From: Alphaproteobacteria bacterium
GTDB lineage: Bacteria > Pseudomonadota > Alphaproteobacteria > UBA7985 > JAUIBT01
Assembly: GCA_030428255.1 (NCBI GenBank)
Contig: JAUIBT010000004.1
Location: 66,604 to 130,603, forward strand
Direction of reading: 5' to 3'
Length of the DNA stretch: 64,000 nt
Position numbers and translations under genes: made by a program. The notes under the pieces were generated by a model, which saw only the letters and a program-made list of their open reading frames with translations, searched no databases and was not told the DNA's origin. Numbering within the stretch: the first letter of the stretch is position 1; each line of letters opens with the position of its first letter. Positions 33,629 through 39,147 of this stretch are shown in pieces.

Positions 33629-33672
33629 TCAGGTCGAATCACAGCCTTGATCGGCATGGAGCGACGCGGCCT
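33629..33672. repeat. dispersed repeat element copy (core CAGGTCGAATCA[C/T]AGCCTTG..GCATGGAGCGAC.CGG)
   Basis: About 40-bp core shared with the tandem repeats at 38946-39147. Confidence 0.6.
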
Positions 33673-33893
33673 GGGTGGAAGGCGCTGGCCCATACAAAAA
33701 AGAGCGCTGACTTGGCCGCCGATCTTGCGATCTTTGCGGTTCAGCCAACGCCCGTCCAAGGTCTACAGGGAGGAACGATGAAAACGATCATCACCTGCTT
33801 AAGTGGTAAGCCTAGATCAATTTTTGCGCGAGGGGCCGCGTTTTATTTCTAAAATCCGCTTTGCAGGCAGCGAAGGGTGCCGCAGTCAGGGGC

Positions 33894-34559
33894 CTAATAC
33901 TCCACGCCCTTTTGCGCTTTCACGCCTTGTTCACGGAAGGGGTGCTTGATCTGGGTCATCTCCGTCACCAGATCCGCGACCTCGATCAGCGCCTCTTTGG
34001 CGTTGCGCCCGGTCACCACGATGTGCAAATCCTCGGGACGGTCTTGCAGAGTGGCGATCACTTCCTCCAGGTCCAAGTGGTCATAGCGCAAGACGATGTT
34101 CAGCTCGTCAAAGATCAACATGTCATAGGCAGGCTCGCCGCCGCGACAGGCCTCGATCATCTCCTTGGCGGCATCCCAGGCGCGGTTTGCGGCGGCGACA
34201 TCGCGCTCGCGGTCTTGGGTCTCCCAGGTGAAGCCCTCGCCCATGGTTTTGATCACGATCTGGTCCGGGAAGGCCTCCAGCACTTTGCGCTCGCCGGTCT
34301 CCCACTTGCCCTTGACGAACTGGACGACGCCCACGCGCATATCGTTGCCGATCGCGCGCGCCGCCAAGCCAAAGGCCGCCGTGGACTTGCCCTTGCCCTT
34401 GCCAGTGTGGACGATCAGCAAGCCCTTTTCGTTGGTCTTGTCGGCCAGCATCTTGTCGCGCGCGGCTTTCTTTTTGCGCGCCTTTTCATTGAAGTGAGCG
34501 TTGATTTGCTCCTGGCTCCAGCCAGCGTACTTGTCGGGCTTGGGGGCATCTTCGGTCAT
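33894..34559 (-). CDS. cobO: cob(I)yrinic acid a,c-diamide adenosyltransferase
   Basis: P-loop HTGKGKGKSTAAFG and CobA/CobO/BtuR family conservation over 221 aa. Confidence 0.88.
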   Translation of the reverse strand: MTEDAPKPDKYAGWSQEQINAHFNEKARKKKAARDKMLADKTNEKGLLIVHTGKGKGKSTAAFGLAARAIGNDMRVGVVQFVKGKWETGERKVLEAFPDQIVIKTMGEGFTWETQDRERDVAAANRAWDAAKEMIEACRGGEPAYDMLIFDELNIVLRYDHLDLEEVIATLQDRPEDLHIVVTGRNAKEALIEVADLVTEMTQIKHPFREQGVKAQKGVEY

Positions 34560-34693
34560 GCAAGGGGCCTCATATGGGTTCAGGGGTGGTTAGCCTAGAG
34601 CAGATCGCTAACGAAGAAAAGATCGGCGGGGGCTAGGCGGTTGCCGCGCTCAAGCCCGACTTGAAAGAAGGTTCGGAACCCCGTCAGATCGCG

Positions 34694-35611
34694 CTAAGCC
34701 TGGCCGGGGTTCAGGACGTGGTTTGAGAAATAAACCCCATAGTTGCCACGGCTCTTTTCGCCGAAGTAGCGCTGCAGTACAAAATGCGTGTCGGCGTCGG
34801 CCAAGCGCTCAAAGTCGATCTCATCTTGCGCATAAAAGCGCCCATCCAGCGGGGTCCCGTCCTCGGACACACAGCGATAAGCTACGGTCTGGCGCTGGCC
34901 TTCGCTGTCGGCATAGACGGAGAAGAGGAAACCGATGGAGGCCGTCAGACCCAGACTGCCCAGCAATCGACGGTAGGCTTGCGGGTGGCCCTCGCCAGGG
35001 TTGAGCGGCAGACGCGGCAAGCGCAAGGAGCCGTCAGCTTCTTCTTCCAAATAGACCTTATCGCCCCGGTCGATTACCGCTGAAACCGAAACCGGCTTGT
35101 CAGATCGCAAAGAGGCGCTGGCGCGCTCGATCAAACTGGGGTGATAGAAGGCCCCGCGCACATAGCCCAAGCCGTCGCGCTCCAGATCTTGGTCAAAGGC
35201 TTTGATCCGACCAATCAACAAGAGGTGGTCCCCGGCCTCGACTTGCTGATGCATACTGCAATCAAACCAGGCGCAGACATCCTTGAGCAGCGGACGGCCT
35301 TCCGGGCTGCGATACCAAGCGACCTTGGCAAAGCGATCCTCGACCCGCGAGGCGAAAACGTTGGCCACGTCGCGCTGTTGCTCGTTGAGAATATTGACCG
35401 CAAAGCCCTCTGCGGCCTGGAAGTTGGCCAAGTTGCTCGATGATTTGGCCAGCGAAATCAGCAGCAGCGGCGGGTCCAGCGACACCGATGTGAAGGAGTT
35501 GGCGGTGAAGCCAATCGGGGCCTTATCAGCGTCCAAGGTGGTGACCACCGTAACGCCGGTCATGAAGGAGCCAAATGCGTTGCGTAGGGCGCGCTTGTCC
35601 AGGTCTGTCAT
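34694..35611 (-). CDS. flavin reductase-like domain protein with uncharacterised C-terminal extension (305 aa)
   Basis: N-terminal LRNAFGSFMTGVTVVTT...GFTANSFTSVSLDPPLLLISL flavin-reductase-like fold motifs. Confidence 0.75.
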   Translation of the reverse strand: MTDLDKRALRNAFGSFMTGVTVVTTLDADKAPIGFTANSFTSVSLDPPLLLISLAKSSSNLANFQAAEGFAVNILNEQQRDVANVFASRVEDRFAKVAWYRSPEGRPLLKDVCAWFDCSMHQQVEAGDHLLLIGRIKAFDQDLERDGLGYVRGAFYHPSLIERASASLRSDKPVSVSAVIDRGDKVYLEEEADGSLRLPRLPLNPGEGHPQAYRRLLGSLGLTASIGFLFSVYADSEGQRQTVAYRCVSEDGTPLDGRFYAQDEIDFERLADADTHFVLQRYFGEKSRGNYGVYFSNHVLNPGQA

Positions 35612-37370: not shown

Positions 37371-37619
37371 AGATCACCCTCTACCCCAAGCAATACACAA
37401 ACCGCTGCGTGTACACTATTTGTTCTTTTAATACACCGCTTGCGGATTTGCGTCAACCTTAAACCTGCTTCGGGCGAGGAATCGCCACCTCAGACCGCAA
37501 AGCTTGCGCCGCGGGCAAAGATTTGCCACCTCTTGAGCCCAAAGCCCGCTGTGACGCGACTGCCCGTCAAGCCAGGCGGCTCGCAACCCGCGCCTTCCTT
37601 TCGCAATCAAGGTTTCACC

Positions 37620-38918
37620 ATGCCCGCACCTGCCCGCTCACACCGAACCATTTTGCTGTTCGTCGCGCTGATTATGGTGCTGAACGCCACGGGCATTGGC
37701 CTCATTCTGCCGATCATGCCGGACCTGCTGCAAGAAATCATGCCGGGCCTCAACGAGGCCAGGGCGGCCACTTGGGGCGCGGGGCTGTCGTTTACCTACG
37801 CCGCCATGCAGTTCCTGATGAGCCCAACGCTGGGCAATATCTCTGACCGGTTTGGCCGGCGCCCGGTCTTGCTACTGTCGCTGTTCATGCTGGCCTTCGA
37901 CCAACTGCTGATGGCCCTGGCGCCCAGTATGGCGCTGTTGTTTTTGGCGCGCATGGTGGCGGGCGGTTCGGCGGCCACCTATGCCACCGCCAACGCGGTT
38001 GTCGCCGACATCTCAGAGCCCGACCAGCGCGCTGCGCGCTTTGGACTTCTGGGAGCCTCCTTCGGCATGGGCTTTGTGTTGGGACCACTGATCGGCGGTT
38101 TCTTGGGCGAATTGGGCCCGCGCGCGCCCTTCTATGCCTCCTTTATACTGATGGTTGCGGCAGGAACCTTTGGCGCGATCATGCTGCCCGAAACCCTGGC
38201 CAAGGATAAGCGGCGGCCCTTCGAGTGGCGGCGGGCCAACCCGCTGGGGACGCTGGCACAGGTACGCAAGTTGCCCTCGATCTCTTGGTTCCTGGTGGCC
38301 TTCTTCTTTTTCCAAATGGCGCACTTTGTCTACCCGGCGATCTGGGCCTATTTCGCCGCCGAGCGCTATGGCTGGGCCAGCGCGCAGATCGGCTTGTCGC
38401 TGTTCGGTGTCGGGCTGGGGTTTGCAGTGGTGCAAGGCGGGCTGATCCGCAAGCTGCTGCCCATCTTGGGCGAGGCGAAAACCGCGCTGCTCGGTTTTGC
38501 CATCAATGCGACGATCCTGGTGCTGGTGGGGCTCTCAACCCAGGGCTGGCAGGCCTATATCTTGCTGCCCTTGGCGGCCCTGGGTGCCATCGCTACCCCA
38601 GCGCTGAACGGCATGATGTCTCGGCTGATCGACGCCAAGTCGCAGGGCGAGCTGCAAGGCGCGACCGCTGGTGTCACCGCGATTACCATGATGATTTTGC
38701 CGCCCAGCATGGGTTGGATTTTCTTTTTCTTTACCGATCCCGCGGCGCGCATCGCCTATTTCCCCGGCGCGCCCTTTGTCGTGGCCGGGGCGCTGATGGC
38801 GATTGCCATATGGCCGCTGATGCTGGGCATTAAACGCATGCGCGCGCGTGAGGCGGCGGCCGCGGCGACCCAGGTCGAAGACAGCGAACCGCAAGCTGTA
38901 CCAGTTGCTAGCGAATAG
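37620..38918 (+). CDS. MFS transporter, TCR/Tet-like subfamily (drug:H+ antiporter)
   Basis: 12-TM MFS with motif LGNISDRFGRRPVLL (G-x-x-x-D-R-x-G-R-R); start chosen at MPAPARSH (37620). Confidence 0.85.
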   Translation: MPAPARSHRTILLFVALIMVLNATGIGLILPIMPDLLQEIMPGLNEARAATWGAGLSFTYAAMQFLMSPTLGNISDRFGRRPVLLLSLFMLAFDQLLMALAPSMALLFLARMVAGGSAATYATANAVVADISEPDQRAARFGLLGASFGMGFVLGPLIGGFLGELGPRAPFYASFILMVAAGTFGAIMLPETLAKDKRRPFEWRRANPLGTLAQVRKLPSISWFLVAFFFFQMAHFVYPAIWAYFAAERYGWASAQIGLSLFGVGLGFAVVQGGLIRKLLPILGEAKTALLGFAINATILVLVGLSTQGWQAYILLPLAALGAIATPALNGMMSRLIDAKSQGELQGATAGVTAITMMILPPSMGWIFFFFTDPAARIAYFPGAPFVVAGALMAIAIWPLMLGIKRMRAREAAAAATQVEDSEPQAVPVASE

Positions 38919-38945
38919 CAAGGCCAGCAAAGAGCGCGGATGTAA

Positions 38946-39147
38946 ACGAGCGCCGGGCCGCCGCGACCGCTCTGCCGTCTGCCAGGTCGTGGCAACGCAG
39001 GTCGAATCATAGCCTTGCGCCGCATGGAGCGACCCGGCTTTGGTCTTATACGAGCGCCGGGCCGCCGCGACCGCTCTGCCGTCTGCCAGGTCGTGGCAAC
39101 GCAGGTCGAATCATAGCCTTGCGCCGCATGGAGCGACCCGGCTTTGG
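38946..39147. repeat. two tandem copies of a ~104-bp element in the convergent MFS/glnE intergenic region
   Basis: ACGAGCGCCGGGCCGCCGCGACCGCTCTGCCGTCTGCCAGGTCGTGGCAACGCAGGTCGAATCATAGCCTTGCGCCGCATGGAGCGACCCGGCTTTGG repeated at 38946 and 39050; internal inverted repeat GCGCCGGGC...GCGACCCGGC. Confidence 0.85.

Follow-up and report, generated by a model that had tools for sequence, protein, structure and literature searches.

A family of small intergenic repeats, probably mobile and resembling MITEs and REPINs, in uncultured marine Alphaproteobacteria

Within the 64,000-nt stretch of alphaproteobacterial DNA analyzed here (termed the window; contig JAUIBT010000004.1 of assembly GCA_030428255.1), a unit of roughly one hundred nucleotides occurs twice side by side downstream of glnE and again, in diverged form, elsewhere. 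This raises the question of what such a unit might be: a mobile repeat, a structured RNA, or a piece of DNA that happened to be duplicated. An earlier reading of the sequence (the original prediction) proposed a REP/MITE-like element or a small structured RNA family. The REP/MITE-like half of that proposal is supported by multiple intergenic copies, by conserved ends arranged around an inverted repeat, and by empty orthologous sites in a relative; the structured RNA half is not borne out by Rfam searches, by folding or by covariation. On balance, the unit probably represents a lineage-restricted, low-copy family of small, non-coding, non-autonomous mobile elements that is MITE/REPIN-like. What points to a mobile repeat is the combination of defined ends, a fixed length, dispersal to unrelated loci in three genomes, empty sites, oriented placement and local clustering.

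Copies in the window were found by low-stringency blastn and then by nhmmer, which together identified five, each of about 98-104 nt, all between 29.1 and 39.15 kb and all intergenic. A covariance model (termed R1), run over the 64 kb with filters off, returned exactly these five at 80-110 bits, with a next-best match of 13 bits. Together with further copies in two related metagenome-assembled genomes (MAGs), this takes the family beyond the three copies with which it was first described. The window features, with the handles used below, are as follows.

38946..39044, + strand: tA, first of the adjacent pair (Tandem Repeats Finder; sequence; nhmmer E 4e-30; covariance model 110.5 bits)
39045..39049, + strand: the tA-tB junction, short and non-repeated, from reading of the sequence (TCTTAT occupies 39044-49)
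39050..39148, + strand: tB, second of the adjacent pair, ending (3') 1 nt short of the stop codon of glnE, which reads TTA on this strand (39150-39152)
33578..33676, + strand: c33, between cobO (plus a conserved terminator resembling that of a small RNA, or sRNA) and a DUF2330 gene (covariance model 85.9 bits)
30254..30352, + strand: c30, newly found (blastn 72% identity, E 1e-11; covariance model 95 bits)
29112..29209, - strand: c29, also newly found, oriented opposite to the rest (nhmmer E 5e-8; covariance model 79.6 bits)

A minus-strand gene of 296 aa has its stop codon (TCA, 30354-30356) 1 nt from the 3' end of c30, and c29 fills the 99-nt spacer between convergent histidine-kinase (stop 29108-29110) and glyoxalase (stop 29210-29212) genes. 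At c33, a diverged 40-bp core had been described at 33629-33672; the core pattern does match there, but the copy turns out to be full length. In its 36-nt form this pattern matches at 33630, 38998 and 39102, and has no match in 100 dinucleotide-preserving shuffles. The five copies constitute four independent loci, all of which fall inside 10 of the window's 64 kb; by rough estimate, the chance of four independent loci sharing one such 10-kb stretch is about 1.5%.

The adjacent pair lies between a gene for an MFS transporter (+, stop 38916-38918) and glnE (-, stop 39150-39152). Tandem Repeats Finder reports 38946-39147 as a repeat of period 104 with 1.9 copies and 100% matches, in agreement with the perfect ~104-bp tandem that had been claimed; read base by base, however, the pair consists of two identical 98-nt blocks (38946-39043 and 39050-39147) with a non-matching 6-nt spacer, TCTTAT, between them. 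The 6 nt immediately 5' of the first block (ATGTAA) and 3' of the second (ATTTAG) are both unlike this spacer. Simple slippage duplication of 104 nt is therefore rejected: it would predict 208 nt of perfect periodicity, which is not observed. The pair can also be written as TA-[102]-TA-[102]-TA. Such adjacent copies may have arisen by insertion of one element beside an existing one or, alternatively, by a duplication with subsequent gene conversion. Presence of the repeat in the raw reads follows from two independent short-read Logan assemblies of the same organism (ERR3428545 and ERR3428546), both of which break about 30 nt into the unit from both sides, as expected of a repeat longer than the k-mer; conversely, the repeat accounts for the breaks seen downstream of glnE when short reads of this organism are assembled. 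Copies of the element cluster locally and can sit head-to-tail.

Whether the element arrived at these loci or was always there can be addressed using relatives that retain the same gene order. A search with the glnE protein gives one match at 100%, one at 84% and then nothing above 48%, the nearest named sequences being Alphaproteobacteria MAGs. The contigs compared are listed here.

L005: JGI metagenome contig, 78-86% DNA identity to the window, fully syntenic, covering all four element loci
L006 and L007: members of the L005 group
L003 (MAG Co_bin.199) and L008 (MAG 7_bin.81): syntenic but more distant, about 77%

In all five of these the element is missing at the orthologous positions. At the c30 site, alignment with L005 shows a clean 103-bp gap (AACAATC|GCGTCA); at the c29 site, the stop-to-stop spacer is 12 nt in L005 versus 99 nt in the window; and the spacer between glnE and the MFS gene is 23 nt in L005, L006 and L007 versus 231 nt in the window, whose first ~22 nt are, by eye, still similar to the spacer in L005. 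The glnE/MFS spacer is likewise free of the element in the outgroups L003 and L008. (In L008 this spacer, at 12580-12645, contains three tandem copies of GTGAGCTAGGCCCG.) Because the element is absent from the orthologous sites of relatives and outgroups alike, the parsimonious interpretation of these alignments is that the copies were inserted in the window's lineage after its divergence from the sequenced relatives.

Other genomes were searched with an end-anchored pattern, CGCCGNNCCGC-N50-80-GCANGNAGCGRCNNGGNNTNGGT. Over 185,579 species genomes, genuine copies came from the two related MAGs alone, along with three chance hits; over the JGI metagenomes the pattern gave one further chance hit, and all four chance hits (L014-L017) lie in GC-rich coding DNA. 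Viral contigs (searched with the same pattern) and plasmids (searched by blastn with the unit) yielded zero matches, and the strict core pattern had none in the genome and metagenome collections, which lack the source genome. A profile together with the covariance model added a second copy on contig L011 and a degenerate copy on L008, so that the copies outside the window are those below.

L011, 5889-5996 (L011a) and 6434-6542 (L011b): Co_bin.199 copies, 450 nt apart
L012/L008, 21057-21164, and L013, 400-506: 7_bin.81 copies
L008, 15299-15410: degenerate 7_bin.81 copy (covariance model 21.8 bits)

These sit at tgt-phnA-grpE (the order on L011 being tgt, element, phnA, element, grpE), between an M23 peptidase gene and xseA, and at a DAO/GcvT-domain oxidoreductase gene. 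The site in L003 that is orthologous to the L008 copy is not a clean empty site. The degenerate copy is itself preceded by GGCCTTGGTCTAA, which resembles the 3' end of another unit.

When eight distinct copies are aligned, no gap is needed anywhere; that is, the length of the element is fixed. The ends are conserved (5' (T)ACGARCGCCGCGCCGC and 3' GCATGGAGCGACGCGGCTTTGGT, with column variability of 0.06-0.15), and the ~40-nt interior is variable in sequence (0.3-0.45) but constant in length. A 10-bp inverted repeat, GCCGCGYCGC/GCGRCGCGGC, closes the unit, with 90% of cells paired across the eight copies; beyond these 10 bp end-to-end complementarity ceases, and neither end of the window copies is palindromic. 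On the reverse strand the helix is continuous, with a U.G pair in 6/8 copies at a position that is an A.C mismatch on the other strand. The inverted repeat that had been predicted to form a long stem-loop (GCCGGG...CCCGGC) does exist and does close the predicted fold, but the fold itself is unremarkable: single-sequence z-scores relative to shuffled sequence are only -0.8 and -0.6, so that neither strand beats shuffled sequence. The consensus fold is likewise weak (about -10 to -14 kcal/mol) and recovers only the 10-bp end helix, without meaningful covariation; just one pair in this helix is compensatory, and the observed pairing is equaled in 18 of 500 shuffles of the columns. The 10-bp end helix is accordingly a conserved sequence, not a proven structure.

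Placement relative to genes is more precise than intergenic location alone implies. At four copies--tB (beside glnE), c30, c29 (beside the histidine kinase) and L011b (beside grpE)--the 3' end of the element (...GGT or GGA) is exactly 1 nt from a convergent stop codon, and at three of these four sites there was room elsewhere in the spacer, amounting to 25-175 nt. L005 has the orthologous stop codons, which hence were not supplied by the element. Insertion has a specific orientation, in which the 3' end comes to lie 1 nt past the stop of the converging gene. Position +4 after the GGT end is an A in 9/9 copies and, as read on the gene strand, the pattern is T-R-R-N and then the element, with the T invariant in 9/9 copies. 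At the other end, the 5' terminus of c29 and of L011a (the latter after tgt) abuts a same-strand TAA stop codon at 0-1 nt.

A further tandem array occurs in the relative L005 (6141-6574), where at least four units, 89-93% identical and with a period of 103 nt, are interrupted by a scaffold gap. It occupies the spacer orthologous to that of c33, in the opposite orientation relative to the genes. Its units have ends (CGCCAAGGCG and CGCCTTGGCG) that are palindromes and inverted copies of each other, and in this sense are REP-like. In common with the element, they contain ATGGAGCG-N4-GGC...TTGG and are linked by a CTTATAT junction similar to the spacer of the adjacent pair. The covariance model finds one unit in register (14.3 bits, E 0.065), and a local alignment of array and element is matched by 34 of 2000 shuffles (p = 0.017). 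On this sequence resemblance the array may tentatively be regarded as a distant subfamily of the element.

Several observations weigh against the interpretation of the element as a mobile repeat. Copy number looks low, since the end-anchored pattern has just 1-2 matches per related MAG. Excepting the adjacent pair, the copies are only 63-85% identical to one another, and hence give no sign of recent bursts. The inverted repeat is just 10 bp and subterminal (6-9 nt from each end), not a classic terminal repeat. No target duplication of 3-9 nt occurs at the copies, and in-register flanking dinucleotides are identical in just 5/9 copies (TA/TA at tA, tB and c29, and AA/AA at two others); inasmuch as neither c30 nor its empty site has a TA, these flanks make a 2-bp target duplication no more than possible. 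No transposase, integrase or RAYT gene was found in the window or in the scanned loci of relatives. Finally, absence from L005 could in principle reflect precise loss, although at the glnE site this is disfavored by the outgroups, which are empty there too.

Comparison with known systems helps to place the element. REPINs, which are hairpin-forming, RAYT-mobilized REP doublets (Bertels & Rainey 2011, PMC3116915), resemble it in being ~100 nt long, strictly extragenic and non-coding, in having two inverted conserved end regions around a less conserved spacer of preserved length, and in lacking an obvious target duplication. REPINs also occur as ordered groups of nearly identical units with a short non-repeated stretch between one and the next (PMC3116915), an arrangement that the adjacent pair resembles. 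A typical REP/REPIN system has one RAYT gene, with REPs on either side of it, and tens to hundreds of copies in the genome. The element differs from REPINs in that its inverted repeat is 10 bp and its ends are not palindromic REPs (a REP being a 20-40-nt imperfect palindrome), in that it has apparently few to tens of copies rather than hundreds (as gauged from its low density in the related MAGs), and in that it shows no hairpin covariation, which in REPINs is common. Correia elements, ERIC/RU-1 (127 bp) and RU-3 (103 bp) are likewise small mobile sequences (PMC2759123), and units of the MITE/ERIC/RU type often lie within transcribed 3' regions (PMC2759123, PMC2267715). The element is similarly small, non-coding, bounded by an inverted repeat, dispersed intergenically, and present or absent at orthologous sites. 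In size (98-104 nt, where MITEs are <300 bp) and lack of coding capacity it agrees with a MITE, as it does in having dispersed copies (five in the window and at least five in the two MAGs) with filled and empty orthologous sites; unlike these families it has no known cognate insertion sequence and no demonstrable target duplication, and its repeat is subterminal. To our knowledge, the exact 1-nt stop spacing and the gap-free length are tighter than described for the MITE/ERIC/RU families. PATEs derived from IS200/IS605, which follow the single-strand transposition logic of HUH enzymes (PMC6006769), share with the element an oriented insertion beside a short motif at one end (here T-N-N-N and then the element) and the lack of a clear target duplication. 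Head-to-tail insertion of the HUH kind could occur were the element's own end similar to the target, and TAAAT and TAAGA do precede the blocks on the reverse strand. Unlike in PATEs, separate subterminal hairpins are not evident, and no TnpA or RAYT gene is seen in the scanned loci; the likeness to IS200/IS605 is a mechanistic analogy only.

The element is called MITE/REPIN-like here and is assigned to neither family, because its ends are not palindromes, which the definition of a REP requires, and because it fits the definition of a MITE only in part, having neither a clear target duplication nor a known parent element. If the element is indeed a mobile repeat, a transposase encoded elsewhere in the genome would move it in trans and, given the lack of a clear target duplication, a single-strand HUH/RAYT-like enzyme or another site-specific enzyme would fit better than a classical DDE enzyme. 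A more specific proposal is that an uncharacterized site-specific enzyme targets the element, in a fixed orientation, to exactly one nucleotide 3' of stop codons, which would then serve as stop-adjacent safe harbors. The enzyme might be single-strand or guide-directed, and mimicry of the target by the end of the element itself would give rise to head-to-tail arrays. This more specific proposal is decidedly unlikely.

The same precise placement suggests another explanation, namely that the unit is a cis-acting RNA module of the 3' untranslated region (an mRNA-end stabilizer, a terminator-like hairpin or a modulator of termination) that is selected beside stop codons, mobility being secondary. 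In E. coli, REP elements located near stop codons are reported to affect translation and the decay of mRNA. When the unit is read in the direction of its neighboring gene, its reverse complement starts 1 nt past the stop in four cases; at c29 and L011a it is the forward strand that starts 0-1 nt after a stop; the helix is continuous on the reverse strand, owing to the U.G pair; and length is strictly conserved. Yet in close relatives the same genes lack the element, which they hence do not need for their expression, and the copies occur in both orientations relative to neighboring genes. Folding energies no better than those of shuffled sequence, and a single compensatory pair with a degree of pairing that shuffled columns also reach, likewise speak against such a module. 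Nor is there a U-run after the stem: a terminator scan flagged no full element and no site spanning an element's closing stem, and inside c30 it marked only two minimal 5-pair hairpins, at its ends. All told, a 3' untranslated region module is rather unlikely.

Other Alphaproteobacteria have tandem clusters of sRNA genes, and the units, being intergenic, ~100 nt long, multi-copy, and tandem both in the window and in L005, might accordingly each be an sRNA gene of a multi-copy family that occurs singly and in tandem. A search of the window against Rfam at the gathering threshold returned only a tRNA and nothing on the elements, however, and no relevant match appeared when both loci were searched up to E 10, the best sub-threshold scores for the element being 10-17 bits (E > 1). 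The units contain no promoter-like site and carry no terminator-like signal; the interior, where a seed would be expected, is their least conserved part; meaningful covariation is lacking; and copies are not kept at orthologous positions. This makes an sRNA family very unlikely. Purely local segmental duplication and decay within a 10-kb region, with no dedicated mobility, would account for the confinement of the five window copies to 10 kb and for two of them being adjacent and identical. The copies that two other genomes carry at unrelated housekeeping loci largely refute it, and it fits poorly with sharply defined ends that recur at every site, with the inversion of one copy, and with the 6-nt spacer of the adjacent pair, which matches neither flank and leaves no clean tandem. 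Local duplication of this sort, which the original prediction had also disfavored, is highly improbable. A family of mobile repeats thus remains the preferred reading.

Various other known types of sequence were considered and rejected. A coding sequence is rejected in that the copies share no stop-free reading frame and their substitutions show no 3-base periodicity; a tandem unit of the MIRU type, which would carry a small open frame reaching over the stop and start codons of its neighbors, is rejected on account of the same lack of a common open frame and of periods (104 and 103) that are not multiples of 3. An intrinsic terminator is rejected because at most three T follow the closing stem, with no U-run. 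An attC or gene cassette array is rejected because the ends (CCAAAGCC... and ...CGCTCGT, on the gene strand) lack the core sites R'' (RYYYAAC) and R' (GTTRRRY) and no integrase such as intI was found in the window; the neighboring genes, moreover, are housekeeping genes (glnE, grpE, tgt), which is also unfitting for an integron cassette. Sigma-54 and sigma-70 promoters, attC core sites and a tRNA-like T-arm were rejected by eye, the spacing or the bases being unfitting.

The surroundings of the element include several further features. Apart from one insert of low third-position GC, the window is ordinary chromosome (rpoB, L10, icd, dapD, gyrA, glnE, cobO, sodB, hutU). The insert, at ~35700-37400, comprises two genes with third-position GC of <0.6 versus ~0.75 in neighboring genes, namely a lipase_3-like open reading frame (ORF) at 36229-36795 and a 193-aa ORF; in L005, L006, L003 and L008 no such insert separates the MFS gene from the flavin-reductase gene, and hence it is likely a recent acquisition. 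A stretch of ~135 nt that lies downstream of cobO, at window positions 33697-33830 (- strand), is ~93% identical to L005, versus ~82% for coding DNA. It contains a UUCCUCCCU motif as well as a strong hairpin with a U-run behind it and, as does its L005 counterpart, scores below threshold for the Rfam suhB/mmgR families (12.9 and 16 bits, versus a gathering score of 41). Judging from these sequence features, it is probably an mmgR-like small RNA gene; c33 begins ~10 nt past its terminator. Elsewhere in the window, 3.3 perfect copies of a 35-bp unit (GGGGTTTGCTGGTTGTTCCGCGCAAATCCACCTAA) lie in tandem at 47991-48104, with a pentapeptide-repeat gene on one side and an MFS gene on the other. Positions 18523-19175 hold 12 repeats of a 54-bp unit (87% identity) within an ORF of 721 aa whose last part is a LysM domain, and this is probably an 18-residue Ala/Pro/Glu-rich coding repeat. 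In L005, a perfect 55-nt direct repeat (10132-10186 and 10287-10341, spaced 155 nt) lies at or just upstream of the called start (10367) of a glyoxalase-family gene and could be an assembly artifact or a small duplication.

What this analysis describes, then, is a new family of a common and well-known type of bacterial intergenic repeat, found in a small group of uncultured marine Alphaproteobacteria. Such families are very common: a survey of stem-loop repeats in 40 genomes found 92, of which 67 were new (PMC2267715). The practical value of the finding is modest, and it adds one family to a long list of small intergenic repeats. When transcribed as part of a 3' untranslated region, the long hairpin of the element may incidentally affect mRNA ends, as do REP and ERIC elements. 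Within its group, the element provides a lineage marker for a poorly known clade of marine Alphaproteobacteria. Its 1-nt stop spacing, gap-free length conservation and recurrent head-to-tail junction are unusually clean and, were a complete genome at hand, could reveal both the target rule and the enzyme responsible.

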